Shown in pieces: positions 1 to 55,887 of a stretch of 64,000 nt of DNA; within the stretch, counting starts at the first letter, position 1; each line of letters starts with the position of its first letter. A program made the position numbers and the translations under genes. The notes below the pieces were generated by a model, which saw only the letters and a list, made by a program, of their open reading frames with translations, did not search any database and had not been told where the DNA came from. Location of the stretch: IMG/VR virus record IMGVR_UViG_3300030061_001589. One strand, written 5' to 3'. The DNA is from an uncultured virus (IMG/VR IMGVR_UViG_3300030061_001589) (Duplodnaviria > Heunggongvirae > Uroviricota > Caudoviricetes).

Positions 1-99
1 CAACATCATTCAAACAGCGAAGAGAAAAGAGAGCAGGCAAAGTGTTTACCTTAATCTTTAGAGAGAGGGCATCTATGAATTAAGGCTGCCTACAAAAAT

Positions 100-120
100 C
101 CCCCCCTCTTTAGAGGGGGG
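100..120. terminator. GC-rich hairpin, possible terminator
   Basis: CCCCCCTCT-TT-AGAGGGGGG inverted repeat. Confidence 0.4.
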
Positions 121-349
121 TCTATTCTTTATGAGGTTAAGTTTTGTAGGCACTCTTGACTACCTTTCTTAAATGAGTGTACTTATCTAACATTTTTTTA
201 GATTTTTTTATCTAACGCTGCCTACAAAACATCGGGTTGTGTGGGTGTTGTTTTGTAGTCATCTTTAGCAAAGTCTAGGTCTGCCTACAAAATTAAAAAA
301 CAAAACTAAAAACTGACTACAAAACTGACTACAAAACAATAAAATAATT

Positions 350-370
350 AAACAATAAGTATATATACCG
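350..370 (+). promoter_or_regulatory. Archaeal-type TATA promoter, class A
   Basis: AAACAATAAGTATATATACCG, identical at 885-905; ATG about 30 nt after the TATA (leaderless geometry). Confidence 0.8.
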
Positions 371-389
371 TACCCGTCTATGAGTTAAT

Positions 390-611
390 ATGGAGATAGC
401 CGCCGAGCCGATACCCACGCATAACGATGATATGAACAACCACATGAATGTAATGATTCAAGTAGATTGGAATGATGGAGTGAAAGATTGGAGAGCCAAT
501 TTTACACATTATAGTCAGTACAAAATGTTTAAGAGAAATCTTAAAGAATCAAGAATGAGAAATCTTACGGGATTCCCATATATCAAAAACATTCAGTCAG
601 TATATTATTAA
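390..611 (+). CDS. Hypothetical early protein
   Basis: ORF between a class A promoter and a conserved 3' element. Confidence 0.65.
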   Translation: MEIAAEPIPTHNDDMNNHMNVMIQVDWNDGVKDWRANFTHYSQYKMFKRNLKESRMRNLTGFPYIKNIQSVYY

Positions 612-618
612 AACTGAA

Positions 619-690
619 AAAATAACAACGAAAGCCCAAGTCCTCGACACACGCATTTATTCGGGCATTGTGTGTCGGGGCATTTTTTTT
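619..690 (+). terminator. Conserved 3' element: 22-nt box, hairpin, T tract (copy 1)
   Basis: AAAATAACAACGAAAGCCCAAG, then CCTCGACACAC...GTGTGTCGGGG, then T8. Confidence 0.75.
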
Positions 691-884
691 CTTACCACTT
701 AGTTTTGTAGGCACCTTTACACTTGTCTAAGTCTGACTACAAAACATATTAGCAATTTTGTAGGCATCCCTATTTATTTGCGAATAGGTGGGGCGTGAGG
801 CACTTTTTTTGTGGTGCCTACAAAATATATTTGTAGGCTTCTTTATTTTTTATTTTGACTGACTACAAAACATTACACCAACAA

Positions 885-905
885 AAACAATAAGTATATA
901 TACCG
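885..905 (+). promoter_or_regulatory. Class A TATA promoter
   Basis: 21-nt exact repeat of 350-370; ATG at 924. Confidence 0.8.
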
Positions 906-923
906 GCATACAGTCCTAGGTAT

Positions 924-1274
924 ATGGTACGACAAATACTAGACGGTACTTATTACCGTAATGGAATGATGGCGACTCCTACGCATGGTTATGCAGTAGG
1001 TTTAGAAAAGGGAGATGCTTTCGCAACTCATAGTGAAAAACATACATTATTTATGTTTTTGGCTGTTCTCGAAAAATACCCCACAGCAAATTATGTTGGA
1101 GTTTGGACAGAAAAATTAGGAATGTCAAAAAATAATCCTAATGGTTCAAAAATTGTTTTCGACCCAATAGCAATTTACTCAAACATCGAGGTTGCTCTAA
1201 GAGTAGCAAAAAGAAACAATCAAAAAGCAATATGGGATTTTTCGACAGGTAGCGAAATCCCAATTCTTAGATAA
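924..1274 (+). CDS. Early protein of a widespread phage family (GxW...QxAIWD), possibly SAM-lyase-like fold
   Basis: YVGVW and ALRVAKRNNQKAIWDF motifs; function inferred. Confidence 0.6.
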   Translation: MVRQILDGTYYRNGMMATPTHGYAVGLEKGDAFATHSEKHTLFMFLAVLEKYPTANYVGVWTEKLGMSKNNPNGSKIVFDPIAIYSNIEVALRVAKRNNQKAIWDFSTGSEIPILR

Positions 1275-1276
1275 AT

Positions 1277-1338
1277 AAAATAACAACGAAAGCCCAAGAC
1301 CTCGCACCTTTTATTCGTGGGTGCGGGGCAATTTTTTT
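1277..1338 (+). terminator. Conserved 3' element (copy 2)
   Basis: Same 22-nt box, CCTCGCACC...GGTGCGGGG hairpin, T7. Confidence 0.75.
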
Positions 1339-1662
1339 ATGCTCTTACGCTGCCTACAAAACATTTTGTAGGCCGTCTTTTTTACCCACCTTTAGGTGGG
1401 GTTTTTTGTTTGTGTTTTGTGCTGCCTACAAAACATTGAACAGCCGAAATATTTTAGGTGTTTCGCACAACCTTCCGTCTATGTTTGACTATATAAACCT
1501 GCCGGTAGGCGTTTTGTAGTCAGTCTTAGCACTTTTTAGCGTTGCCTACAAAACAGGTTTATTTTTGTTATCTAGTGTTTTTTTTACACTTAGTTTACTT
1601 TTTACACTTAATGCAGATTTTTCACCACTTTTGCTGCCTACAAAACATTGAGGTATTTATAT

Positions 1663-1678
1663 AGTTAAGTATATATAC
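1663..1678 (+). promoter_or_regulatory. Class A-like TATA promoter with no convincing downstream ORF
   Basis: AGTTAAGTATATATAC, identical at 2119-2134. Confidence 0.55.
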
Positions 1679-2118
1679 CCCCATCTCATCTCGTATGGAC
1701 AAAATGATATATGCGATTTTCGCCTACAAAACATTTTGTAGGCACTTCAAATTGTGTCTGTCAAGACCCACCTAGTCGGAGATTATTTTTGCTGCCTACA
1801 AAACAAAAAAAACGCTGTACTGCGGCGGTGTAGATTCTACACCAACCCAAAAATGCCTACAAAACTACTGCCTACAAAACAATTTAGGTGTTGTGAATGT
1901 AAGTTAGTGTTAAAAAATCATCAAGTGTAATATATGCACTAAGTAATGTTTTGTAGGCGGTCTTACTAGAATATAACGCTGACTACAAAACTTTTATAAC
2001 AAATAAAAATATTTTCTTTTTTCTCAAAAATAATAATTCGGTATGTACGGCTACAAAACATTCAATATCTCAAAAAAACCACTAAAAAGCCGCCTACAAA
2101 ACCAATGATGCAGGAGTG

Positions 2119-2134
2119 AGTTAAGTATATATAC
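2119..2134 (+). promoter_or_regulatory. Class A-like TATA promoter
   Basis: AGTTAAGTATATATAC; ATG at 2156. Confidence 0.7.
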
Positions 2135-2155
2135 TATGACAATATATTAAAAAAT

Positions 2156-2737
2156 ATGACAAACAGAAAACCATGCAGATACAAAGCCTGTAAAGGTGTA
2201 ATTCATGCCGAAGGCGAAAAATGCCCTGTCGCTTCTAGTAGAGGTAAAAAAGGCGGGTCAGGTAAAAAATCCGAATCATGGATTCAAAATAGAATCGGTT
2301 CAAAAAATCCTAATTTCAAAGGTACTAGAAAATGCGGCTGTCCAATTCGACAGCATTTACCAACTTGTTCTCAATCGAGAATGTCAAAAATCAAAATCAA
2401 TGCAATCAATAATCACGATTTCAATAATTATAATCCTCTTTCAAAAACGGAATATATTTTCGATGCTATGCAGGATAAAATAAAAATTGTTAAAATTGCC
2501 CGAAAAGAAAATATTCCACTCAAAAGAACCGTAGCAAATTGGGAATTAGAAAATGCGGTAAAAGTAAAATCAGTACCACATTTTCAATTCTTAAAATATG
2601 ATGGAGTTTGTTCATCATGTCAAAAAATCAGTCCTGTAATATCGGCTTCAAAAATCCATGCCGAAGATATAAAATATAAATTACCCGAAGAACATTTTTT
2701 CAAAGCGAGGATTATTTGCGAAAAGTGCAACGCTTAA
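2156..2737 (+). CDS. Basic Cys/His-rich (zinc-binding) protein
   Basis: CRYKAC..H..C, CGC..H..C, CSSC and CEKC clusters; Lys-rich. Confidence 0.7.
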   Translation: MTNRKPCRYKACKGVIHAEGEKCPVASSRGKKGGSGKKSESWIQNRIGSKNPNFKGTRKCGCPIRQHLPTCSQSRMSKIKINAINNHDFNNYNPLSKTEYIFDAMQDKIKIVKIARKENIPLKRTVANWELENAVKVKSVPHFQFLKYDGVCSSCQKISPVISASKIHAEDIKYKLPEEHFFKARIICEKCNA

Positions 2738-2784
2738 GAATCAGAATCGAGGGTATTAAATAAGATGAAATAGGAGTTAAAAAT

Positions 2785-3021
2785 ATGACGACAAGAACGG
2801 ATTACAACGGATGGACTAATAGAGAAACATGGTTAATTAATTTACATTATGAACCTAAAAATGAACAGACTTTAGATTGGATTAAAGATGAGTTAGAAAT
2901 TATCCTTGAAAGAATCGGCGATTTACCTTACGGCCGTTTTTTCAATGATTTCATAGATTTAGATAAAATTAATTGGTATGAATTAAAAAACCACGTTCGA
3001 GAAAATTACGAGGAAGAGTAA
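2785..3021 (+). CDS. Conserved phage protein, YNGWxNxETW family
   Basis: N-terminal YNGWTNRETW and C-terminal INWYEL motifs. Confidence 0.75.
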   Translation: MTTRTDYNGWTNRETWLINLHYEPKNEQTLDWIKDELEIILERIGDLPYGRFFNDFIDLDKINWYELKNHVRENYEEE

Positions 3022-3093
3022 GACGCTTAAGAATCACAAACGAGTATATTAAATAAGATAAAGAATAAGAATAAATTGTAGGAGAAACAGAAT

Positions 3094-3165
3094 ATGACAA
3101 CCGAAGAATTACAGCAAATGATTGACGACACGAAAGCAGGTAAATTATATTGGGGGCGAAAATAA
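3094..3165 (+). CDS. Micro-ORF, 23 aa (not in ORF track)
   Basis: GGAG RBS downstream of class B promoter 3023; abuts next ATG. Confidence 0.45.
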   Translation: MTTEELQQMIDDTKAGKLYWGRK

Positions 3166-3288
3166 ATGGCTAAAGATTTACGCCCAACATTACAGAATCG
3201 AAAAGATTTGAGAGAATCAAATCCTGCCTTGACCCTTTGGGCTAGGCAAATGATTGACGAATTAGGATTGAATGCAAATCAATTCTAA
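3166..3288 (+). CDS. Small ORF, 40 aa, MAKDLRPT... (not in ORF track)
   Basis: ATG directly after upstream TAA. Confidence 0.5.
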   Translation: MAKDLRPTLQNRKDLRESNPALTLWARQMIDELGLNANQF

Positions 3289-3476
3289 AATCCCACTCCC
3301 GCCCCTTGAGCGTTGATTAGGGGATGCATCCTAAGTATGATGTGAGATTGCGAATAACCTATTGACGAGTAGGCGAAAACTTTCGGAAACTGCTTTTACA
3401 TTTAACGAAAAAGAAAAATATGCCTTCCGGCATTAGGTTCGGAAGAGGACTTATTTTTAAGGTCAAAATACCTTTC

Positions 3477-3512
3477 GGGGTGCATCCATTTCGGGTGCAT
3501 CCCACTTTTTTT
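3477..3512 (+). terminator. Hairpin plus T tract
   Basis: GGGGTGCATCC-ATTTC-GGGTGCATCCC (two G-U pairs) followed by T7. Confidence 0.65.
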
Positions 3513-3719
3513 ATTTTTAAGATAAAGTTTTGTAGGCACTCTTAGATAAGTGTAAGACCGACTACAAAACATTTTTGCGTAGTTTATAAGCAGTTAAAAT
3601 CATTAAAGATGCCTACAAAACATAATGAAATCCGAAAAATAAAACTGCCTACAAAACTAAAAATGACGCTTAAGACTCACAAACGACAGGGTTAAATACT
3701 AGCACATATAGTTTAGTTT

Positions 3720-3935
3720 ATGAGCAAGAAAAGCCAACAACTAGAAGAAGCAGAAATCACATTAGGTGAAATTGACAAAGCATATAAGGTATATGAAAAT
3801 AGTAGAGATTTATTTCAAGAGGAATTACTTTCACTTCAAAAGAAATTAACTTTGGGTCAAGTAATTAGTCTGTATAGTATATTAAGAGAAGAATTATCAG
3901 TAGTAGAATACGACTTTGGTTTGCATGACGCTTAA
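3720..3935 (+). CDS. Hypothetical helical protein
   Basis: Starts 54 nt after class B motif 3666. Confidence 0.7.
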   Translation: MSKKSQQLEEAEITLGEIDKAYKVYENSRDLFQEELLSLQKKLTLGQVISLYSILREELSVVEYDFGLHDA

Positions 3936-3982
3936 GAATCAAGAAGAGTAGATTTAAGTAAAAAGAAAAAGGAGAGAGATAT

Positions 3983-4270
3983 ATGACAAAGAGAATGGTT
4001 AAAAGGAATACAAAAACACCAATAGAAGCATTAGAGGATTCGGATATTGACTTTACAGTCAATACTCATAAAAATGCTACGATGAAAAATGTAGTAGTTT
4101 GGAAATACGATGCGAATAATAAAAAGCCTAATTATGCTAAAGATAAGTATAATGAATCTGAAAGAAAGATAGAAGAAAGACGCTTAAGAAGCGAGAAGGA
4201 AGCACTTATAACTAATGAGAAATTAGTTAGTTTTGTGGGAGAAGTACCTACACCAACAGAAGAGGAATAA
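3983..4270 (+). CDS. Hypothetical protein
   Basis: Starts 55 nt after class B motif 3928. Confidence 0.7.
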   Translation: MTKRMVKRNTKTPIEALEDSDIDFTVNTHKNATMKNVVVWKYDANNKKPNYAKDKYNESERKIEERRLRSEKEALITNEKLVSFVGEVPTPTEEE

Positions 4271-4290
4271 AAAAAAGGAGTGAAAAAAAA

Positions 4291-5280
4291 ATGAGTATGA
4301 GAAATATGTTAGGGGCTTATGCCCGATTTGGAAAAGAAGCACAAGGAACGACTGTGAAAGAGGTATTGAAGAATGCAAATGCCGATTTCAATATAGGTAT
4401 GGAATCTATCTATACTAAAGGTGGTAAGGTTATACCGAACCAATTTAGGACATTTAGAGAAGATACCGATGAAACTTTTGGTGTTGTAAAAGGCACATAC
4501 AAAGTTATGCAGAATGAAAGACTGTTAGACATATCTGACGATTTAGTAGAGAGAGAAAAAGTAATTTGGGATAGGATTGGACTTGTAGATAACGGTAGAC
4601 AAATCGTAGCATCTTTTAAGATGCCGGAAGGGTTCTCTATCGGTGGAATGGATTCAGTAGAGCAGTACATAATGCTGATGAACACAAATGACGGTTCGGG
4701 CGGCATCCGTATTTTACCCTCAAATGTAAGAATTGCTTGCAGTAATCAATTTACATATATGCAAAGTCTGTTAAATAAAATGGGTATCAATAAAAATGCT
4801 CTAACTATCAGACATTCAGCACGTCAAGAGGATAGGATTGCACAATTGGTAGAGGCTCTAAAAATTGTAGACCATCTCAATCAGACATTTATGGAAACAG
4901 CGACAGAATTAATTCAAGTGCAAATGTCTCAAGATGAGAGAATTAATTTCTACATAGATACTTTAGGGCTAAAACAAAATGAAGATATGATGAAGGGCGG
5001 CAAAGATTATGATGCTAACAACCCTTACGGATTAGGTACTAGAGGCCAAAATACTCTAACCACTTTGTTAGAGTTAGAAACATCAGATACGAATACTATC
5101 AACGGAATGGGCGGCTCGGCTTGGGGCTGTTTTAATACAGCAACGGAATATATAGACCACGCATGGAGTCATACCAAAGATGGAAAGTCAAGCGATAGCA
5201 AAGTAGAATCAGCAATCGTAGGTGCGGGTGCAAGAATGAAGTCAAAAGCATGGGAAACCATCACGGAGATGTACGCTTAG
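4291..5280 (+). CDS. DUF932/DUF945-family phage/plasmid protein
   Basis: GVVKGTYKVMQN, LMNTNDGSGG, RIACSNQ, IRHS and GSAWGCFNTATEY motifs. Confidence 0.85.
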   Translation: MSMRNMLGAYARFGKEAQGTTVKEVLKNANADFNIGMESIYTKGGKVIPNQFRTFREDTDETFGVVKGTYKVMQNERLLDISDDLVEREKVIWDRIGLVDNGRQIVASFKMPEGFSIGGMDSVEQYIMLMNTNDGSGGIRILPSNVRIACSNQFTYMQSLLNKMGINKNALTIRHSARQEDRIAQLVEALKIVDHLNQTFMETATELIQVQMSQDERINFYIDTLGLKQNEDMMKGGKDYDANNPYGLGTRGQNTLTTLLELETSDTNTINGMGGSAWGCFNTATEYIDHAWSHTKDGKSSDSKVESAIVGAGARMKSKAWETITEMYA

Positions 5281-5293
5281 AATTATCTTAAAA

Positions 5294-5324
5294 GTAAGTA
5301 GGGGGGTAGTACCCTCTACTTACT
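5294..5324 (+). terminator. Hairpin after the DUF932-like gene
   Basis: GTAAGTAG-GGGGGT...ACCCT-CTACTTAC inverted repeat. Confidence 0.5.
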
Positions 5325-5401
5325 CCTAAGACTGACTACAAAAATGACGCTTAGGAATCACAAACGGTATAGTTAAATAGAATGAAAAAGGAGTGAGATA
5401 T

Positions 5402-5815
5402 ATGACAAGAAGTAGACGAGGCAGACACGGAGAAATATGCGAGAGACAAAACGGAAGTATAATGATGACTGTAAGACCGACACCATCGGTTTTATATGAT
5501 ACAGATATAGCCATGATGATAGGTTATATTTGTGATGTAGGTAGGCCGAGTTATTATAGTGAAGAAGTTATATCCAAATCTGATGCTAAACAGGCAATAC
5601 ACGATTGGGAATATAATACCGGCCCTATTACACCTTTGACAAAGAAAATGGTTATGGGTTATCTACAAAGTAATTATTATTTAGCACAAATTGAAGAACG
5701 TACTGATACGCTTGATACCTATGATGAAGATTGTGGAGTATGTCAAGCATTATTAGAAAGGGTTCATCAGATATTCCCTTCTTTTGTCGTAAAAGAAACC
5801 GAGGTGATTGCGTGA
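5402..5815 (+). CDS. Hypothetical protein
   Basis: Start moved to ATG 5402, 55 nt after class B motif 5347. Confidence 0.7.
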   Translation: MTRSRRGRHGEICERQNGSIMMTVRPTPSVLYDTDIAMMIGYICDVGRPSYYSEEVISKSDAKQAIHDWEYNTGPITPLTKKMVMGYLQSNYYLAQIEERTDTLDTYDEDCGVCQALLERVHQIFPSFVVKETEVIA

Positions 5816-6042
5816 GTTTAACATTAGATGATATAATCAGTTTTATATTCGTACGGAATGAAAAAGAAAGAGATGATGCTAACAATCCTTACGGTAATTT
5901 TGATTGGATGAAATATCCTATTACAGTCGCTTTCAAAGATAGAGATGGATTAACCGTTGTATCAGATATTACAAGTATTTGCTTTAACGGTAAAAGTATT
6001 CAACTGAATGAAGAAGAGTTTGACAAAGAGGTGATTGCATAA
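5812..6042 (+). CDS. Hypothetical protein
   Basis: GAGGTGA RBS; GTGA start/stop overlap. Confidence 0.65.
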   Translation: MSLTLDDIISFIFVRNEKERDDANNPYGNFDWMKYPITVAFKDRDGLTVVSDITSICFNGKSIQLNEEEFDKEVIA

Positions 6043-6383
6043 TGGCTAATCTAAATATTATTACAAATCAAGTTTATAATTGGATAAACGAATCTAATAC
6101 AGATTTTAATTTACATTTCGGAGAAAACAAACTTTACTTAAGCGTAGAATGGATTGACGGTAAATCGCTTTTTATAGAAGATTATTTTTATTTTATGAAT
6201 GAATTGATTGCTGCTTATTGTGATTTAGATAGAGATACTGATGAGGTAAAAGTAATTTGGTTTAACAGAATATTCGGAATCAATAGTGAGTATCATGGAA
6301 TCGCTGATGGTAGATGGGCTGATGACGCTTTAGAATCACAAACAGCAGACTTAAATAAGATGGAGAAGGAGAGAGATATATGA
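6042..6383 (+). CDS. Hypothetical acidic protein
   Basis: GAGGTGA RBS; TAATG coupling. Confidence 0.7.
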   Translation: MANLNIITNQVYNWINESNTDFNLHFGENKLYLSVEWIDGKSLFIEDYFYFMNELIAAYCDLDRDTDEVKVIWFNRIFGINSEYHGIADGRWADDALESQTADLNKMEKERDI

Positions 6384-6607
6384 GTAAAAGAGAAGAAGAG
6401 ATGGTAGACTTAGCCCTAAGTGAATTAGAAAATGCTATGGATGCACTACATAAAATAAATAGAGAAACAGATATAGTAGACGATGTTGAATACAATAAAA
6501 TAAATAGAGCAGTATGGGATGTAGAGCAAATACTAAAAGATTGGCAGGATGTAAATGTAAGTACCCAAAATAATTTAGAAGAATGGAATCAAGGATTTAG
6601 GAGATGA
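6380..6607 (+). CDS. Small acidic helical protein with PIP-box-like tail
   Basis: Starts 55 nt after class B motif 6325; QNNLEEW near the C-terminus. Confidence 0.7.
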   Translation: MSKREEEMVDLALSELENAMDALHKINRETDIVDDVEYNKINRAVWDVEQILKDWQDVNVSTQNNLEEWNQGFRR

Positions 6608-6873
6608 ATAAAATGAATAGCATAAGTATGAATGGACACGGCATAAAAGAAATAAAAATATTGAGAGGCGAAGGTGATATTAAGCATTTGCTTAGAATTG
6701 TCATCGTTGATAAAAATGATGAATCTACTGATATTAATTTATTCGGTATGCGAGATAACGAAACAAGAAAAGATATTACAATACCCGTAAAAGTAGATTC
6801 TAGGACTTTAGATACTGTGTCCTTTGATTGTGAGTTTAATTTTCTAGGTGATGAAATAGAGGAAGAGGAATAA
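6604..6873 (+). CDS. Hypothetical protein
   Basis: Coupled ORF with GGAG RBS. Confidence 0.65.
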   Translation: MNKMNSISMNGHGIKEIKILRGEGDIKHLLRIVIVDKNDESTDINLFGMRDNETRKDITIPVKVDSRTLDTVSFDCEFNFLGDEIEEEE

Positions 6874-6875
6874 AT

Positions 6876-7181
6876 ATGAACGACCATCTTAATTTACACA
6901 AGTATGATGACGAGATAGAGACATTATATGGTGAACACGACTTTAACCCCAATATTTCTTTCGCTAAGAATTACGCTAAAAATAATATTTGGGCTGCTTT
7001 TTATTCAGCAGCGAGAGAGGTAGGTATGCCCGAAGATATGGCTAAACAATTTATTGATTCAAAGTGGTTTAGACACAATGAAGAAGAAATATACCAACAA
7101 CTTACAGCGACATTATTTACAATGCTTTGGTCCAATAGACTTAGACTAGAGCCTTACATTGATAGAGGGGATGTAGAATGA
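6876..7181 (+). CDS. Hypothetical protein
   Basis: Coupled ORF with GAGG RBS. Confidence 0.65.
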   Translation: MNDHLNLHKYDDEIETLYGEHDFNPNISFAKNYAKNNIWAAFYSAAREVGMPEDMAKQFIDSKWFRHNEEEIYQQLTATLFTMLWSNRLRLEPYIDRGDVE

Positions 7182-7293
7182 TTAGAGATAGTTTTAAGGA
7201 AATACTAAAAGATGAATTGATGGTGTTAGTTATGACGCAAGTTATTTTTGGGGTAATATCATTAGGTATCTTAATTACTGCGGTTGTGATGTT

Positions 7294-7878
7294 ATGAATA
7301 TACCAAAATACTACGACTACAAATACTACGTGGGCGACCCTTGCTATGTCATAGATGATAGTAGATGGGGTGAGTTTTGTGATTTGTTGTGGTTTTGTCA
7401 AGCAGAAAATAAAAAAGATTACGGACATGAATATCCTGTACATCTTAAATGGGTTGTTGATGATATTTCTTATACCATAGAAGTATGGGATAGCCCAAAC
7501 GGAGATGGTGTTTGGAACTTTAGTAATACCGTAAAAGAAATGCGTGGTTGGATTGCAGGTACAGAAATGGGTGTTGATGCAGGTTTATTGGCTATCGTAC
7601 CCTATGGTGCTATTTCTAATAACAGCACTTGTTCAGATAAAGATAGTATAAAAGAAATATCAAATCTAGGTATTATTTTTACCGAAGAACCAATCTTAGA
7701 AACAGGTATGCACGTAGTAGGTGAAGTAAGACTAAACGACAGGGATGAAAATAATGTATGTTATTGTTTTAATTGTGGTGATGAAATACAAGAACATGAT
7801 GTAATAGATTGTGAAAACTATAATTGTATGGGATGTCATATGTGTTTTGAATGTGAATGTGAGGATGAGGAAGAATGA
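7294..7878 (+). CDS. Conserved phage protein (GDPCY...VDAG family) with Cys-rich C-terminal zinc module
   Basis: YYVGDPCYVI, GVDAGLLAIVP; CFNC...C..C..CHMC tail. Confidence 0.7.
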   Translation: MNIPKYYDYKYYVGDPCYVIDDSRWGEFCDLLWFCQAENKKDYGHEYPVHLKWVVDDISYTIEVWDSPNGDGVWNFSNTVKEMRGWIAGTEMGVDAGLLAIVPYGAISNNSTCSDKDSIKEISNLGIIFTEEPILETGMHVVGEVRLNDRDENNVCYCFNCGDEIQEHDVIDCENYNCMGCHMCFECECEDEEE

Positions 7879-23706: not shown

Positions 23707-24651
23707 ATGACATGGGGTACACAAGCACCACAAGCAACTAAGACGACAGAAGCACCACAAGGAGTGGTGTATAACGAAGAATACTACCGTAATATCTTTA
23801 AGAATAACAAATCACAATCTGTTGATTTGCGTATGGGATTGGTAGGTTGGGAAAACACCGCTAAGACAGGACTAGCACTATCTATGATGGATGCAGAAAT
23901 CAAAGCAGGTAAAAAGGTAGCAGTATTTGATGTAGATAATTCAGCAAAATCTACCGTAGATTATATCTATCCCGATGCAGAAAACATTATGGTAATACCA
24001 CTACACGATGAAACAGATGATTCTATCTTTGATACAGATAACAACGTAGATTACAAAGCATTGGTTGATAAGACTAATTGGTTTGTAAACATTCTAGCAG
24101 AAGAGGTAGCAGCCAACCCCGATGATTGGGCGGGTGTAGTATTCGATGGTGGTTCAACATTCCTAAAATGGTGTGAACACGCTATGAGAGCATCACTACT
24201 AAGTCGTGGTATCATTGAAACAGAAGATGGTACTTTTAACCAAAAAGAATGGCGAGAACGTAATCGTATGAACAGAAATGTTCTGACTAGGATTCACGCT
24301 TTGCCTGTACCCAAAGTATTCTTTACCTTCCACCTAAAACCTGTACAGCAGTATATGGATGACGGCACAGGTAAAAAGGTACTAATGACAGTCGGTGATA
24401 GACCCGATTGGGATAAAGGTACTATGCGTAAGTTTTCGCAACAGATTTTCCTAAATAGATACATGAAAAAGGCAGACGTAGCCGCAGGTGTTAAGGGTGA
24501 TAAAACCTTAGCCGATGGTGAGTGGGCTATCAAAGGTACTATTGAGGAAATGAAAGGTAAGAACATGGAGTATGTAGGTACAACACATACTATTTTGACG
24601 GTGAAAAGCGGGAAGGTAGAGTGGACAGGGCTACCTTTCTTAAATGAGTGA
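23707..24651 (+). CDS. RecA-superfamily ATPase (Sak4/AAA_24-like)
   Basis: GWENTAKT Walker A variant, VFDVD, VVFDG Walker B, FTFH. Confidence 0.7.
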   Translation: MTWGTQAPQATKTTEAPQGVVYNEEYYRNIFKNNKSQSVDLRMGLVGWENTAKTGLALSMMDAEIKAGKKVAVFDVDNSAKSTVDYIYPDAENIMVIPLHDETDDSIFDTDNNVDYKALVDKTNWFVNILAEEVAANPDDWAGVVFDGGSTFLKWCEHAMRASLLSRGIIETEDGTFNQKEWRERNRMNRNVLTRIHALPVPKVFFTFHLKPVQQYMDDGTGKKVLMTVGDRPDWDKGTMRKFSQQIFLNRYMKKADVAAGVKGDKTLADGEWAIKGTIEEMKGKNMEYVGTTHTILTVKSGKVEWTGLPFLNE

Positions 24652-24660
24652 GGCGATAAT

Positions 24661-25488
24661 ATGCAATCTATCGTAGATACACAATCATTGATATGGTTGC
24701 TAAAGTGTACACAACGTAGACAAACCATTTCCGGTAAAAATATACCACAAGTTTCGGCTTGTATGTTGAATGCCGTAGGTGGTAGAATGTCTACTTGTTC
24801 TCTCACTAAAGATGGTGTATCATCTGTAGGTATCTTCTCGATACCATCTACAGGAGAAGCCAAAATACCTGTTAGCGACATAGAGACTATGTTGGGAATA
24901 CTAAAGTATCATGGAAATGCTTTGACCTTAACTTATGATAATGATAAGTTAAAACTAAAGTCTAAGTACAAGCAAACAACGCTTACTGCTTCCGAGAATG
25001 CTTTGGCTTTCCCACATAGTCCTACCACATTAAATGAGTGGTCTAATACATCAATAACATTTGCCGCAAAACTAAATGTAGGTAATGAAATAGGATATAC
25101 TATGAATGATGGTAGTATCTTACAACCTGCTTGTTCTTGGGAATCGGTAGATGCAGTACGTTTATTTGAAGCAGTTAGATGTGATGAAATGAACGGACAA
25201 AAATTGAACACATTCACTTTTAAGGGAGATGAAAACGGACTTAGTGTTGTCGTTGGTAAGGAATTAAAAGGTAGAACAGAATATGAGTTAGATAGGAGAA
25301 GCACTCAATGGCCTTTCATGGCTACCTATCAAGGTGGATTCAATAATCTATTTGCTAACATTAACGGTAAAATAAACTTATACTTTTTTGATTTCACACA
25401 ATGGGAACAAGGCGTTAAATTGCTTATAACTTTAGGTGATGGCGACTTTATTTTCCAATCAGCACTACTAGGAGATGAATATATATGA
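24661..25488 (+). CDS. Divergent PCNA-like sliding clamp
   Basis: 275 aa with repeated beta-alpha-beta-beta-beta pattern; RFC and PolB in the same block. Confidence 0.6.
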   Translation: MQSIVDTQSLIWLLKCTQRRQTISGKNIPQVSACMLNAVGGRMSTCSLTKDGVSSVGIFSIPSTGEAKIPVSDIETMLGILKYHGNALTLTYDNDKLKLKSKYKQTTLTASENALAFPHSPTTLNEWSNTSITFAAKLNVGNEIGYTMNDGSILQPACSWESVDAVRLFEAVRCDEMNGQKLNTFTFKGDENGLSVVVGKELKGRTEYELDRRSTQWPFMATYQGGFNNLFANINGKINLYFFDFTQWEQGVKLLITLGDGDFIFQSALLGDEYI

Positions 25489-25829
25489 TAATGAATACAG
25501 AAGTAATAGCGACACCAACAGACACTAACGTAGATAACCCTACTTTCTATACGATAAAGGATTTTATAGTACCTACTCCCTCTAATGGTGGACTAGCAAC
25601 ATTTACATTTACGGGTAAACACGGTGAAAACTTTGTTGCATCGGTAAAAGTTAGACAGGAGTTAGACCCACTCTACAGGGATGAAATATGGCTAAACAAA
25701 CAATATGTAGAGATGGAACGAAGTATGGCTGATATAGCAGACCAATTTGGTATTACACCTGCGGCCATCAATCAATGGTTAAACAAATATGATATACCTA
25801 CAAGAAGTAGAGGTAGAGGTAATGAGTAA
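25485..25829 (+). CDS. HTH DNA-binding protein
   Basis: WL...Y....RSMADIADQFGITPAAINQWL..YDIPTR. Confidence 0.8.
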   Translation: MIMNTEVIATPTDTNVDNPTFYTIKDFIVPTPSNGGLATFTFTGKHGENFVASVKVRQELDPLYRDEIWLNKQYVEMERSMADIADQFGITPAAINQWLNKYDIPTRSRGRGNE

Positions 25830-31479: not shown

Positions 31480-34400
31480 ATCTCAAACTTATTAGATGTA
31501 CCACTAACAGGTGCAGATGCTCTATTTAGTTTTACCTTAATACTTTTTAGTAGAACACTATTTCTATCCGAGTTATCATCACCTGTTGCTGCCTTTCTTG
31601 TTATTTTAACGGTTATTTTATTACCTGCCTTTACACCACCCAAAGCATTCAAGGGTATCAACTCTACTATTTTTTCTTGTGAGTTTGTTTGTACACGAAT
31701 AGTATTAGTGATTGTCTCTCCTGTTTCTTCAATAACTGCGGTTGTATAAAGAATAGCAGTTTTAGTAGCAGATGCACCTATACCATGATTTACTTTTGCC
31801 GTAATTAAAACATTATTATTAACTACATCATCGGGGATTATAAACTCGGTTTGTAAAGTAGACTCAAAGGTAGTAGTCGTAGCAGTTTCGTTTAGTATAT
31901 CTACTCTACCCTTACCTGCTAGTATATACCCATCAGAAGTTATAGACGCATTCCCACTCGCAGTATGTATATCTACATCCATACCTTCTATTCCCTTAAA
32001 CAACGTAGGTACTTTAGGTGGTTTTTGTTGGCCTAAGATACTAAACTTAGAATTATGGCTTAGATTATCGTTCATCAAATGCATTTTACCATTCAATTTA
32101 CGGTAAGTAGTATTACTAAGTTGTCCTATCCCTACCGGACCACTTGAAGTAGTAATTATATCTCCGTTTGCATTGTCGGATTGAGTAAGACCAAACTCGG
32201 ATGTAGTATCTGCTTCCACATTTACTTGTTCGCTAGAAGTACTACCTACGGGTATTATATATGTTGTCGGGGTTGTGATAGGTTCACTATCATTAGTCAT
32301 AGTACTACTAACTTGTCTTGTTTTACCTTGATTTGGGAACAAGAATCCTAAAATACCACCACTAGATAAAGACTCATCTCTTTCTAATTCAAGTTGTATC
32401 TCTTCTTTGCTACCCGATACTACATTCCAATTTATACTTTTTATAGTTAGTGTTTCTGCGGAAGATAACCCTATACCTGCATCTGTAAAACTTAGATATG
32501 TAGCAGGAGTATAAGATAAATCATTAGTAATATGTATTCTAGGTGCGTACCACTCACTTCTAGCAGTAGTAAACCCACCATACATTTCTGAATATTCTCT
32601 ACCACCAAGCGGGAATATACTATCTGTGTTAAATCCACTACTGCTTAAATTAACTCCGTATATACTATTAGCATTCTTTAAAATATTAGCACCTGTTGGG
32701 TCGCCACATCTATGACGTAATAAAGCACGACAATATTCTGCGTTAAAACTAACTATAATTTTAGCGTTAGATTGAGTACTATATTGTGCAGGTATAGGCA
32801 ATTCATAAAAACCACTATCTTTTACATCTACACTTGTAATTTGATTTGCGGTTGCATCTTTTGTAATTAAATCTTCAAAAGTATAATCAGCACAATAAAT
32901 ACTAAATTGACAATCATCAATTGTTGCACCTGCTGTTTGGCTAACTTTTAAGGCAACATAAACTCTAAGGTGTTCTTTAGTAGCCTCACTTCTATGCGGA
33001 GTAAAATTAGGTATATGTACTATCTGCATAGCATAACTTAAAGACCTAGAGCCGTACCAATAATAATTATCAGCCCAAGCCACATCAGCAGAAGTATGTG
33101 TAAAAGATGATTTACCGTGTCGGTGGTACAAATCAGTAGAGGTTTTCATATTTCCATCTAATCCGTTAGTCATACCGGAAAAGGGTACTCCACCCGTACC
33201 TAAAATAGTCCAAGAATTACCCCTATTTGTATCAGTAGCGTCATAATCACCATATCCTTGTAAGGCTAATTGTGGGTCGGCTATGTAGCCGTATCTACCA
33301 CTCTCTATCATTTTATTATTATGATTATTTTCTAAAATAGGCTTAACACTAATTGACAACCTAGAGTTTTTAACTTGATTATATTTTTGTTTTGCTACTT
33401 GTCTTGCCTCTAAACTGTTAGTTATTTTTGGGTATTCTAATACTGTCCATCTAGTAGTATCTGTTAAAGATGTGTTAGGAAAATCTACAAAAGAATATCC
33501 TTTGTTATAATACACTCTAACATTTGTTATTTGACCTGCTACATCCGTATCTAAATCAGATATAGTCACGTTTTCTCTTGTAAAAATTAAACCACTATTA
33601 TATTTAGGTCTATATTCAAATCTATTGTCTCTACCTATCAAGTAAGAAAAGGTTGTTTTAAGCCCGTTGTTTACACCGAAGCCACTCTTACCCCTAGCAT
33701 CCTCTACAGTACTTAGAATCGTCTTAGTACGGCTATCTACGATACTTCCGTAGCCATCACTACTAGAAGTACTGTTATAGGTAGTCATAAGAGAAGTAAT
33801 AGGTACATTATTTATGTCAAACATAGTACCCAATCTTGTTTTAGGTGTCCATGATTTCATAATCGCTGCATTCCACAACAACCTAAACTTATCGCTGTCA
33901 TAAAAACTACCACTATTTTTACTTTGTACATCCCCTTCAACGTGCATTAATAACCTAAGCATAAATTGACTGCTTACTGTGTTGTGTACAACAACCAAAT
34001 CAGCCTGTGGGTTATCTCCTGTTATTCTTTGGCTGACATTTACACCTATACCTTCCATATTACCTTTTAGTAGTGGTGTGTACAAAGCCCATATTTCATT
34101 TTCTACGCCTGTTGAAGAAGTTTCTATTGAAGAAGTAATATGGTCGGCAGTTGTTAAAAACGCATTAGCCAATTGTACAGGCAAAGTATAATCATCAGTA
34201 TCGCTTTGAGTAGCAGACCATGTACCGGAAACTACTATTTGAGTTTCACTTAAAACTGCTAATACATTATGCCTAGTTTCTTTTGTCGTATTTTTAATAA
34301 CCATACCACCTTTAACACCTTTTGTTTGAAAGGTTTCTCCTATTTTTGTTATTACTGTGTTAGTAGGATTTGTCGTAGTAATGTTTTGACTTCTATCGTA

Positions 34401-37400
34401 GGATGTTATTGTTATACCTGTACCTGTTATTGCTGTATCTAATTTATATTTCCAAGCAAAATAATACTCTACCGTGTCATCACTATCGGCAATATCTACT
34501 ACTATAAGACCTGCGCCTGTATAATTAAAATTAGCCGTAGATTCAACAGGTATTCCCATATCACCCATTATCAAACCTTCGTCTGCTGTTGTCAAATCCG
34601 ATATTAACCTTTGGTTATTAGGGTGTGGAGAAATAGGTGCGGCTGTATTTTTATATGAAGATATTGCTTCCGCATAATAATTATCTATTAGTGCAGGGAA
34701 TCCCTCAACCGTTGCTACATAATCCCCTAAGTCAGTATTTCTTCCTATCACTTGGTCTGATGCACCTTTGTTTGCTAAGGTGTTTAGATTGAAAAACCTA
34801 GCCGAATCTATAACTATAAATGCACCTGCTTTATCTTCCCAATCTCGGTATAGGCTTAAATCTATTTCCGAGGCTGCTGCGGGGGCTATCATAACATTAC
34901 CTATTACTGCGTTGGTATTTGTACCTGCACTAACACCTTTTAAGGTAATAGTACTTGTACCACTAATAGATGCTATTTCATAAGTACCATCATAATGTAG
35001 ACTATTATATATTGTAGCGTAAGAACCTACTGTATAATTTGTAGTTGTCGGCCCAAAAGTCAATGTAGTATTAGAAGTAGTTAAAAACGCAGGAACACTT
35101 AATTCAAAAGTAGTTGCATTAGTTATACTAAATACTGTTGCACCACTAGGTATTCCTAAACCGGAAACAGACATACCTACAACAATAGAAGCGGTACTAT
35201 TCATTGTAATAGTAGCGTCTGTATTAGTAGTATCACAAGTAGCATCGGTTAAACCACTAACTACTAATTGATTAGCACCGTATGTAATATTTACCGGATT
35301 GCCTAAAGAATAATCAGGTGTCTTAGAAAATGCTGCACCACTAACAGGTTCGTTTGTAGCATCCACATTCCATATATCTATATCTTCTCCTATTTTTAAG
35401 TTAGCAAACTTATCTATATTTCCGTCTGTATCTGTTTGGTCTACATAATAAAGAGAAACTTCATAGTTATCTGTTGTTGGATATTGTAAGCCAAAATCTG
35501 TTTTTCTTGTAGACCCGTCTGCATCTGCTCTACCGTTATTTCTCATATCAGACCAAAGAAGCCAAAGATGTTTATAGTCATTAGAAACATCTAAAATTGA
35601 TACTTTACCTGTAGATGCACTATAACCCTTTGTAATATATTTACAGCCTACAAGGTAGTAATTACCACCACTACTGACAAGACCTGTATATACAAATATA
35701 GTACTTCCTAGACTGTTGCTTAATTGTGCTATGCCGCTTTTATAATTAGTAATTAGATTATCATATAGGGATTGTGGTATTTGTACTTTATTGTCTCCTG
35801 TACTTACATTTGCGGAAACATTAACTTTAAACAAAGCAGTACGATTTATTTTACCAAAATGATATTGAAACCAAAGACTCTTAGGCAAATCTCGCATCCA
35901 TCTAGCGTGTATTGGTTTGTATTTTACTTTATCGAAATTACCTGCTGTGGTCGCTATGGTACAAGAATCTACAGAAATACTTTTTCTATCATTACCATCT
36001 CTTAATCCATCTTTATCGGTATAAGCCTTACCCGATGCTACAAACTCAATACCGTTGTAATCCGTTGATGTAGTAACGGCCCACAAGAACGGATTAGTTA
36101 TTGTGCCTGTATCGTAATAATTCATAATTTTTTTAACACCTATAACCGTGTGTTTACCATCATAACTTGTATTAGCAGAAAGTCCTACTGTCACATCACT
36201 CACACAAAACTCATCGTTTATAAGTAAAATAGGGTCAGCATCAAAGAAAAATGTAACATATTCTGATATAGCCTCATCTGAACTAGAATTGGGTAGTGCG
36301 TCATATCCATTTTCAGCAATACGCCATGCAAGCCAAGCAGAACTAAACGCTGATGTACCTACTTCTAAACCAATCCTAGCCAATATTGATTCGTTATTTG
36401 TCTCCCCTAAATATTTACCTGCATATACTATTTTAGCAGCAGGTGTGACATAAGGTACATCAGTTGCACTAAAAGTAGCAGAAAGGCTTGTGACAGAATC
36501 TACAGTATAAGACCCATTAGTAGCCGCATTATTAGAACCCCTAATGACAGCAGTAGAACCTTGAGTAATACCATGACCTACTAATAAGTTTATAACTGTT
36601 TTACCATTAGTATCTTGACTAAACCCTTGAGAAAATACACCTTCGTATTGTGCTTCTAAATCGTTAGGACCAAAAACTGTATCTTCATTGTTGTACATTT
36701 GTATAGGGTGGCCCGAACCTAGTTGTGTTCTTTGGTTATTTACTTCTAAATATGAATCATCTACATCAAACCCTACTTTATTACTAAGTGTTTTTAAGGG
36801 TAAAGTACCTAGATTCATAATTTGTCTATATCCTTGTGCATCATATAACCAATATTGCGGTGTTTCTGTATTATTACTAAGGCTTTTCTGTCCTACTTCC
36901 CATAGTGGTATTTGTCTATCTAATAAATTAAGATTGTCATTAGCGTTTAATGTTATTGTTCTACCGTCATTATTTCTTTGTTTGATAGACATTTTATCTA
37001 CTATGCCTCTCCATACCGGCCTATCTATTCTTGGTGTTTGACTAGCAAAAACTAATAAAGACCAATCAACGGGGGTATCACCACTAAATATATTTTTTAA
37101 ATTATGTAAATAATCTTGGGAACGCATACCAACATTAAGATTCGCTGCACCGCCACCATCTAGTTGTTTTTGTGGGTCATCAGCAATAACAATTTTACAA
37201 TTAGATACACCGTTTACCGGCATAGAAATATTCATATTTTGTATGGGTGCATCATAACTTTTGTAGTTTTTAGCGTCTGTTAAATATCTAACAAGACCTA
37301 CTCTATCAACCATTAATGTAGTACTACTTGAGGGGTTAGCACTTGTTGGTGCTGCCTCTATTTGATAACCGTATAAATCTCCCGCACTAGGACTACCCAC

Positions 37401-38567: not shown

Positions 38568-38575
38568 TAAATCAC

Positions 38576-49980: not shown

Positions 49981-55887
<5,907 letters not shown>

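Follow-up and report, generated by a model that had tools for sequence, protein, structure and literature searches.

A strictly spaced 12-bp half-site array in register with predicted promoters of an uncultured tailed virus

The half-site array and its spacing

We analysed a stretch of 64,000 nucleotides (nt), here called the window, from an uncultured tailed virus (IMG/VR record IMGVR_UViG_3300030061_001589, Caudoviricetes); positions refer to the window unless another contig is named, and handles beginning with L denote related IMG/VR contigs. Between 88 and 5343 the window carries 33 copies of one half-site of about 12 bp, TGMCTACAAAAC, all of them intergenic and outside the chosen open reading frames (ORFs); no intergenic space of the block is without it. 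Twelve of these copies form six inverted dyads with a 22-bp spacer (N22 dyads), which an earlier note on this DNA had read as recombination sites of the loxP/dif type or as an array for a dimeric protein. For GMCTACAAAA alone the window gives 31 matches where 0.46 would be expected, 30 of them within 88-3656 and one at 5334; with near-variants, recognised by the context TGMCTACAAAAC, the count reaches 33 (90-5336), 23 of them forward and 10 reverse. The features of the locus are collected in Table 1.

A scan for TTTGTAGKC-N(20-24)-GMCTACAAA returns six matches in the window, at 252, 704, 830, 1513, 1950 and 3529, always with a spacer of 22, and none in 100 shuffles; all six dyads thus stand where the earlier note had placed them. 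Its spacer formula, N4-TTA-N8-TA(A/G)-N4 in five of the six, is also correct, site 828 having TTT instead of TAA, as is the observation that each window dyad combines one GCC and one GAC arm, those at 250 and 1511 with reversed polarity. This rule holds for the six window dyads but is a tendency rather than a law: 26 distinct N22 dyads from five related sequences comprise 20 GCC/GAC, six GCC/GCC and no GAC/GAC pairs, and the state switches between the first two at an orthologous site (1513 in the window, 4997 in L058). By chance, six arms of each kind would give six hetero pairs with P = 0.069. The 18-bp arms that had been proposed could not be upheld, the inner parts being unconserved except for TA (positions 15-16) and TAA (25-27), and the six 8-bp cores are all different.

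The pairing extends beyond the six dyads. Every one of the 10 reverse copies in the window is paired head-to-head with a forward copy, across a gap of 22 (six pairs), 50 (three) or 68 bp (one); the corresponding gaps are 22 (nine), 50 (two) and 25 (one) in L054 and 22 (10) and 50 (two) in L058. In 5000 trials that scattered 33 half-sites randomly over the same four spacers, six equal head-to-head gaps never arose, the maximum being three, reached in 21 trials. The 68-bp gap belongs to a seventh dyad, at 142-229, which has the N22 form, with no 49-bp insertion, in relatives and in two RNA-library contigs of a related strain. The insertion stands in place of the TAA at the exact dyad centre and repeats TTATCTAAC; over part of its length it is also similar to the centre of dyad 3527 on the opposite strand. 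The three 50-bp spacers are unrelated in sequence, yet each contains a hairpin and a T-run. One 50-bp-spacer unit has, at 780-800, a non-coding, unusually conserved element, GAATAGGTGGGG(..)CGTGAGG, in common with L061 (~1495-1525), which belongs to a lineage of only 47% DUF932 identity.

A consensus scan of 1-6000 predicts 12 terminator-like sites against 3.1 expected, including 101-120, 1385-1400 and 3477-3503; by eye, further predicted hairpins with T-runs stand behind the genes at 390-611 and 924-1274, and the tail-to-tail palindromes with their following T-runs also score as terminator-like. In this lineage the site takes its paired form as the N22 dyad, which is found mostly behind terminator-like hairpins and ahead of promoters. 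A common helical phase of neighbouring sites was looked for and rejected, the centre distances of 12, 15, 32, 36, 43, 51, 61 and more bp showing none. The stretch 3289-3520, of some 230 bp, is non-coding and hairpin-rich (for example at 3477-3503); it differs from related strains by a 105-bp indel (3290-3396) and has no match in Rfam.

Table 1. Half-site arrangements, TATA-like boxes and genes of the array region, in order along the window.
Feature	Position	Strand	Remarks
First half-site of the array	88-97	+	5 nt past the stop of the upstream 249-aa gene
Seventh dyad	142-229		GCC/GCC; interrupted by a 49-bp insertion (159-207), making a 68-bp gap
N22 dyad	250-293		GAC left arm, GCC right arm
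Tandem GAC half-site pair	315-337	+	12-bp period; second copy ends 20 nt before the TATA box
TATA-like box AAGTATATATAC	357-368	+	21 nt before ATG 390; putative class-1 promoter
73-aa cassette gene	390-611	+	no family; replaced in L054, with breaks at 383 and 610
N22 dyad	702-745		GCC left, GAC right; 12 nt past the T-run of the hairpin behind gene 390-611
Head-to-head pair, 50-bp spacer	756-825		hairpin and T-run in spacer
Tail-to-tail palindrome	816-838		5-nt centre
N22 dyad	828-871		left arm shares bases with palindrome 816-838; right arm doubles as promoter-proximal half-site for TATA box 892
TATA-like box AAGTATATATAC	892-903	+	20 nt before ATG 924
116-aa cassette gene	924-1274	+	no family; missing from lineage 2
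Tail-to-tail palindrome GCCTACAAAACATTTTGTAGGC	1352-1373		in the area of the 40-bp stretch 1332-1371 that bounds an extra cassette in two relatives
Head-to-head pair, 50-bp spacer	1364-1433		hairpin 1385-1400 and T-run
N22 dyad	1511-1554		GAC left, GCC right; CTATATAAAC 13 nt upstream
Promoter-proximal half-site	1636-1646	+	ends 21 nt before the TATA box
TATA-like box AAGTATATATAC	1667-1678	+	no ORF of at least 40 aa behind it, micro-ORF only
Tail-to-tail palindrome	1722-1743		sequence identical to 1352-1373
Head-to-head pair, 50-bp spacer	1734-1803		hairpin and T-run in spacer
Tandem GCC half-site pair	1855-1879	+	15-bp period
N22 dyad	1948-1991		GCC left, GAC right; followed by AT-rich 1992-2048
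Promoter-proximal half-site	2092-2102	+	ends 21 nt before the TATA box
TATA-like box AAGTATATATAC	2123-2134	+	21 nt before ATG 2156
193-aa Cys-rich protein gene	2156-2737	+	first conserved gene behind the array; tested as candidate binder, unsupported
N22 dyad	3527-3570		GCC left, GAC right; directly behind the terminator-like hairpin 3477-3503 and T-run
Two single half-sites	3611-3656	+	ahead of the GACGCTTAAGA-type signal of gene 3720
Outlying half-site	5334-5343	+	immediately before another GACGCTTAAGA signal

Selection on the word and its register with promoters

N22 dyad arrays are also present in four further IMG/VR contigs of 77-96% DNA identity, and alignment with two of these relatives locates the constraint. 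Against L058, 25 of 372 half-site positions of the window are changed (6.7%), and 215 of 1424 (15.1%) in other intergenic DNA; for L054 the corresponding figures are 5 of 369 (1.4%) and 100 of 1471 (6.8%), a divergence 2-5 times lower in the half-sites than in the remaining intergenic DNA. The 8-bp cores, with 12 of 48 positions changed in L058 (25%) and 4 of 48 in L054 (8.3%), are at or above background, and the rest of the inner arms differs at 13 of 72 and 1 of 72 positions, which for L058 is 18% against a background of 15%. Conservation therefore sits in the outer 11-12 bp, the part of each dyad farthest from its centre. Compared with the non-coding DNA around them, the half-sites are thus under purifying selection: the outer 12-bp word and the spacing are constrained and the centre is free.

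More distant relatives keep the array and change the word. In L055 and L056 (lineage 2), whose DUF932 proteins are 91-92% identical to that of the window, there are 46 copies of ACCCTACAAAAT, mostly direct and in 15-bp tandem runs, and no N22 dyads. Two such runs in L055 (2021-2101 and 2814-2864), each with four to six direct copies whose period is exactly 15 bp, lie downstream of minus-strand cassette genes. Lineage 3 (L061, L064, L066 and L068; DUF932 ~45%) has 39-57 copies of a CGACTA-type word (GCGACTAAA) together with TTAGTCGCGACTAA palindromes, and in L061 the outlying copies are four promoter pairs at 4306-7861. Through the Cys-rich gene that neighbours the array we collected 34 loci, 16 of which hold 18-59 copies of a private 10-mer, representing at least seven different words; four loci show a weaker repeat and fourteen none by this count. 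The private words include AACTACATAA, AACTACAAAA, TTACTACAAA, ACTTCGTAGG, TGTTACAAAA and CGTTACAAAA, and GTTACAAAAC is among the array words of other relatives. Overall the word takes at least eight forms in the group and already differs between viruses with 91% identical DUF932.

Some properties of the array persist across these changes of word. A tail-to-tail palindrome with a 2- or 4-nt centre occurs in all nine relative loci listed (L126 left out), in 2-9 copies each, and a count of 8-mer gaps finds such palindromes in 10 of 12 loci, L126 and L100 having none. Forward copies outnumber reverse ones in the window (23:10) and do so more strongly in the relatives (54:11, 55:10 and 71:7, for example), and ORF-free stretches of 0.9-1.9 kb lie inside the arrays of otherwise compact genomes. 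Head-to-head gaps in the other-word lineages are scattered, from roughly 11 to 67. The copies are confined to one locus: to 88-5343 of ~69.7 kb in the window virus and, for all 49 copies of a 99%-complete relative of 68,491 bp, to 33,180-39,310 (6.1 kb). A search for the N22 pattern in 185,579 species genomes returned 28 isolated bacterial loci, no archaeal genome and no array; each of the 28 has a single dyad and 2-4 half-sites, most are perfect hairpins, and a rough estimate of chance matches is ~35.

The position of the word relative to TATA-like boxes is equally regular. Each of the 13 forward AGTATATATA TATA boxes found in the window, L054 and L058 is preceded by a forward half-site whose end lies 20-21 nt away. 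Inspection by eye shows this spacing, at 21 nt, for the lineage 2 word as well (L055 3493-3580, minus strand), and in lineage 3 five L061 promoters consist of TTAGTCGC-N4-TTAGTCGC, 10 nt and a TATA-like box. The word is therefore part of the promoter architecture. Small ORFs are framed by such a predicted promoter, its TATA box 20-21 nt before ATGs 390, 924 and 2156, and by a predicted terminator hairpin. In archaea, leaderless mRNAs are expected to have their TATA box at such a distance of 20-21 nt from the ATG, and we infer that the boxes are archaeal promoters of this kind, which would put the proximal site at about -53 to -63. We found no consistent antisense promoter 20 nt to the left of the dyads (by eye).

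Other possible transcription signals were noted. The sequence GACGCTTAAGA(A/C)TCA occurs on the plus strand at 2731, 3024, 3667, 3929, 4181, 9512 and 19430, with a TTAAATA-like box ~17 nt later, and stands ~55 nt before ATGs that have a Shine-Dalgarno-like sequence in front of them; this signal resembles a promoter of a second class. The segment 1667-1830 encodes a micro-ORF of 23-26 codons that crosses the palindrome at 1722-1743 and whose length is kept in L054 and L058, and AACGCTGTACTGCGGCGGTG (1803-1826) is retained in lineage 2; this segment may be a small RNA or a micro-protein.

Cassette turnover and recombination

Relatives differ in the content, the order and the orientation of the genes between the sites, as the earlier note had predicted. 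L054 and L058 contain an additional cassette, of 755 and 300 bp respectively, that brings its own dyads and promoter and is delimited by the stretch corresponding to 1332-1371/1380, in which a palindrome lies. L058 also has a second copy of a dyad-promoter unit, the order of two gene families is exchanged in L054, and L055 and L056 have minus-strand cassettes. Other strain junctions fall at 158/208 and on GACGCTTAAGA repeats; several strain-to-strain joints lie on that signal, for which some relatives have ACGCTTGCGA instead. A dyad core hosts only one of about seven junction sets. Alignments among the relatives show words, promoters and terminators to be places of cassette gain, loss, duplication and swap, and the exchange itself looks like ordinary recombination between repeats that needs no dedicated recombinase. 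The cassette proteins of the three lineages have no family in common.

Does a site-specific recombinase, viral or the host's XerA, use the dyads as core-type sites to invert or shuffle these cassettes? The dyad symmetry, the variable 8-bp centre, the mark of polarity, the differences in cassette content, order and orientation among relatives and the insertion placed exactly at the centre of one dyad would all fit such a function. Strand exchange by these enzymes requires an overlap shared between partner sites, and the six unlike cores would therefore leave the partners without one. The conserved bases lie at least 11 bp from the centre while those flanking the core drift. The dyads have opposed polarity without inverted genes, all genes of the window array region being on the plus strand. 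Contigs from four sequencing runs contain no joint at the six cores, their joints being mostly at other repeats, in a comparison that may miss rare forms. In the 74 ORFs of the window and four of the flank, which together cover ~69.7 kb, no integrase, resolvase, recombinase or transposase Pfam match was found (E up to 0.001-0.05), a scan of the viral genome that leaves a host enzyme conceivable. The earlier note had itself raised the non-identical cores and the missing window recombinase as objections, and both are confirmed, the search of the flank being empty as well. It had also made its proposal depend on conservation of the spacing and of the GCC/GAC asymmetry in relatives, and both are missing from the sister lineages that keep arrays. 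With no recombinase found, unlike cores, conservation away from the centre and few core junctions, we consider a loxP/dif-type role highly improbable.

The same turnover might have arisen without any dedicated protein, if the repeats were parts of promoter-terminator modules that spread with their cassettes, as do the PeSLs of T4-type phages. The junctions at repeats 1332-1371, 158/208 and GACGCTTAAGA agree with this, as do the terminator-like palindromes with T-runs and the dyads, which fold better than shuffled sequence (z -1.9 to -4.3). Hairpin strength nevertheless seems not to be the selected trait, given that the inner arm bases are unpaired and 20 of the 26 dyads are mismatched at the GCC/GAC position. 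Module copying also leaves unexplained the exact spacing despite sequence-unrelated spacers, the 2-5 times lower divergence limited to the 12-bp word, and the lineage-wide replacement of the word at every copy, and we think it improbable.

Two bolder ideas, to which together we give only a slim chance, are that the dyads are docking points for recombinase-free cassette insertion, akin to integron capture, or that the arrays are a fast-diversifying immunity code. Insertion at the head-to-head centre would explain the 22-, 50- and 68-bp spacer classes, the central 49-bp insertion and the cassette turnover, and would make the array an integron-like platform for gene capture in an archaeal virus. 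An immunity code of at least eight words would decide which co-infecting magroviruses silence each other.

A regulatory reading, its rivals and related systems

The explanation we favour, with confidence about evenly poised, is that the array consists of operators or upstream sites for a putative DNA-binding protein, probably encoded by the virus, under whose control the early cassettes would stand. The dyads would be the paired form of the binding site for one sequence-specific protein, which would co-regulate a block of small early genes, probably with functions in anti-defence or host takeover. Such a protein would contact each half-site through the 11-bp box and a TAA that lies five bases further in; on a head-to-head pair, two protomers would touch across the 22-bp gap, and the tail-to-tail palindrome would be a classical dimer operator. 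Surplus sites behind terminator-like hairpins and ahead of promoters may load the protein so that the whole block switches together, and may also insulate neighbouring cassettes.

We favour a cis-regulatory function because of the TATA register in three lineages, the selection on the word and not on the centre, the conserved palindrome of operator form and the replacement of the word. Complete replacement of the word among close relatives is the behaviour of a reader that the virus itself encodes (cf. PMC6550527; here and below, papers are cited for the portions of their text available to us). Archaeal viruses are described as placing virus-specific regulatory sequences around strong promoters of early anti-defence genes (PMC11065993). 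The DUF932 gene behind the array and the ArdA-like genes of L061 and L066 would fit an early anti-defence block; in lineage 3 these ArdA-type anti-restriction genes lie between the array and DUF932 (L061 6232-6774; L066 6304-6837). Of the proposals in the earlier note, the dimer-binding array thus comes closer to our result, but not the packaging or genome-entry role attached to it, since the fixed TATA register points to transcription control. Its more general proposal of a protein-DNA recognition system, of which we found none such described, agrees with the purifying selection, the strict spacing classes and the arrays in relatives.

Several observations weigh against this regulatory explanation. 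About 33 sites for 5-6 promoters, together with the long ORF-free stretches, are more than promoter control needs, and the exact spacings of 22 and 50 are unaccounted for, the box centres being ~34 bp apart, which is no whole number of helical turns. RNA libraries (X19 and X20) come from a related strain, with most pieces 90-99% alike, and give long assembled contigs in which starts, ends and strand are not readable; parts of the stretch left uncovered in some runs carry no evidential weight. The contigs run across genes and spacers alike and so do not show transcript starts or timing. No DNA-binding family of Pfam or PHROG is encoded in or beside the array, and within 6 kb on either side no ORF family is specific to arrays (1622 ORFs, 34 loci). 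The 193-aa Cys-rich protein is uncoupled from them, its gene occurring without an array in 14-18 of 34 loci and lineage 3 having arrays without the gene.

That protein was tested as a candidate binder; its gene is directly downstream of arrays wherever both exist. Its family has 31 homologues, all unnamed, with the invariant features KPCRYKxCKG..H..KCPVASSRGKxGG, CGCPxRQH and a C-terminal CxxC...H..D...CxxC. Searches gave no Pfam, PHROG or PDB sequence match; the AlphaFold model is mediocre (pLDDT 66, pTM 0.31), and a Foldseek comparison with the PDB returned nothing at E <= 0.001, only generic zinc-finger entries. The Cys-rich proteins of 249 and 326 aa encoded upstream were likewise rejected as binders, having no family; for the 249-aa protein there was no PDB sequence match at E < 0.18, and its ESM Atlas rows were all < 0.9. 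ParA-like and helix-turn-helix candidates at 23707-24651 and 25485-25829 gave sub-threshold matches only.

The setting of the array in the genome bears on further rivals. A 16.8-kb contig (G001), 99.9% identical to the window, bridges bases 64000 and 1 through 5716 bp, and a contig from the sequencing run that is the window's likely source is likewise continuous across base 1. The genome is therefore ~69.7 kb and base 1 is no genome end, so that the terminal placement given in the earlier note does not hold. The 5.7-kb flank before base 1, which has no copy of the half-site word, has its genes on the early-gene strand; their products are an exonuclease, the large terminase and a pair of Cys-rich proteins. 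The segment L031 10174-13918 holds the large terminase gene, separate from the portal-head-tail block, and after it the genes of the two Cys-rich proteins (326 and 249 aa, without known family), the last ending 5 nt before the array. Behind the array come a DUF932 gene and a long series of small plus-strand genes, and replication genes begin ~10 kb from it. The window also encodes a family B DNA polymerase (PolB), a thermosome-type chaperonin, an RFC-like ATPase, ERCC4 and PD-(D/E)XK nucleases, and portal, tail tube and tape-measure proteins. The closest cultured relatives of the polymerase are those of haloarchaeal tailed viruses, at 24-25% identity; gene set and PolB affinity agree with the published magrovirus description (PMC5434244), and the host is probably a member of the Poseidoniales. 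A minus-strand gene at 49981-55887 encodes a 1968-aa protein with collagen triple-helix repeats (seven matched stretches), which explains a local GC content of 0.49-0.53. The window has no tRNA gene, an Rfam scan of 1-6000 gave a single sub-threshold match (anti-hemB, 23 bits against a threshold of 49.5), and a blastn search of a phage collection with 1-4000 gave no match.

Might the array instead be a replication origin, or a partition or nucleoprotein site, whose words are iterons and whose promoter-linked copies are a by-product, for instance of autoregulation? The concentration of 30-78 copies in one 4-6 kb locus with none elsewhere in the genome would suit an origin, and so would the ORF-free stretches of 0.9-1.9 kb in compact genomes, the AT-rich segment 1992-2048 between a dyad and two half-sites, and the runs of tandem copies with periods of 12-15 bp. 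The exact TATA register of 20-21 nt would not be expected of an origin. The copies are also spread over at least four spacers (3.6-5.3 kb) between cassettes, with outliers at distal promoters (5334; L061 4306-7861), the replication genes are ~10 kb distant, and there is no ParA/ParB pair, the one P-loop match at 23707-24651 being sub-threshold. GC skew tracks gene orientation and cannot place an origin. Magroviruses are reported to encode MCM, primase and PolB, a list that does not contain Orc1/Cdc6, and 'Orc1' is absent from the text available (PMC5434244); some origin-binding factor would therefore be needed. On balance we regard an origin in place of a regulatory array as unlikely. An origin or nucleoprotein function in addition to transcription control is a serious rival.

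A further alternative is that the word is read by a transcription factor of the Poseidoniales host and has been copied by the virus to fire its first genes. Immediate-early genes depend on host factors alone, and archaeal activators usually sit upstream of the transcription factor B recognition element (BRE) and TATA box, which is where the promoter-proximal sites lie. The repeat promoters of halovirus HF2 are active without viral factors (PMC8707807). Yet the word has at least eight forms, which differ already at 91% DUF932 identity, a change faster than is usual for a host factor, and the search of 185,579 species genomes gave only the 28 single bacterial matches to the N22 dyad. This makes a host reader quite unlikely in our estimation.

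In the surface ocean few viruses are more abundant than magroviruses, and neither they nor their hosts are cultured. The array offers a defined 12-bp word, a promoter-linked position, strict pairing rules and at least eight natural variants; with such data a protein-DNA recognition pair could be found by covariation and tested in vitro without the host. It also flags small ORFs that are likely to be expressed first and are probably anti-defence genes, and shows where these viruses exchange such genes.

In loxP, dif and attC sites, inverted arms abut an overlap of 6-8 bp that is identical between partners, and an asymmetry gives polarity. The dyads resemble these sites in their inverted arms, short centre and polarity-giving asymmetry, but their boxes are 22 bp apart, their centres are all unlike and no recombinase was found encoded. 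The omega sites of pSM19035, ParR/parC of R1 and Rep iterons are compact (<0.3 kb), contiguous plasmid arrays with ParA or Rep partners, in which a single protein can act as transcriptional repressor and also assemble a nucleoprotein complex. These iteron or heptad arrays and the window have in common a short word repeated many times, direct and inverted, in front of promoters; in the window the array is spread out and no ParA/Rep-type partner was found.

We regard the array as a variant of the regulatory repeats known from early genes of viruses (PMC11065993, PMC8707807), unreported in the searchable text of the magrovirus papers: in PMC5434244, PMC11706807 and PMC10160649 that text contains neither 'promoter' nor 'palindrom', and no use of 'repeat' that concerns such sites. 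In the Aca8-type regulons of rudiviruses and others, clustered small unrelated genes share sequence around a strong BRE/TATA promoter, with flanks that vary by virus and are proposed targets of virus-encoded repressors (PMC11065993). These regulons have one block per gene, at the promoter, in crenarchaeal viruses (PMC11065993); the array, which belongs to a tailed virus of marine euryarchaea, has a 12-bp word in 33 copies, with dyads, palindromes and tandems that extend past the promoters, and no Aca-like protein was found in the window virus. Halovirus HF2, an archaeal tailed virus of the type to which the nearest cultured PolB relatives belong, has class I and II repeats that are intergenic, promoter-bearing and conserved in position and are proposed to bind a viral regulator (PMC8707807). 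They are single units of 58 or 29 bp, in 7 and 2 copies, in middle and late regions (PMC8707807), and differ in this from the short word, dyad geometry and early block seen here. The PeSLs of T4-type phages likewise frame small non-essential genes with an early promoter and a terminator stem-loop and are shuffled by recombination, but they consist of sigma-70 promoters and hairpins and have no separate protein-binding word (PMC2839356). In the operators and stoperators of Cluster A mycobacteriophages (L5 gp71), an asymmetric 13-bp site occurs in 20-30 copies, mostly in one orientation (PMC6550527, PMC9283540), in short intergenic spaces, and its consensus varies between related phages and co-varies with the repressor (PMC6550527). 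Stoperators are bacterial and genome-wide, have a known monomeric repressor and lack fixed-spacing dyads (PMC6550527), whereas here all copies are gathered in one locus of 4-6 kb.

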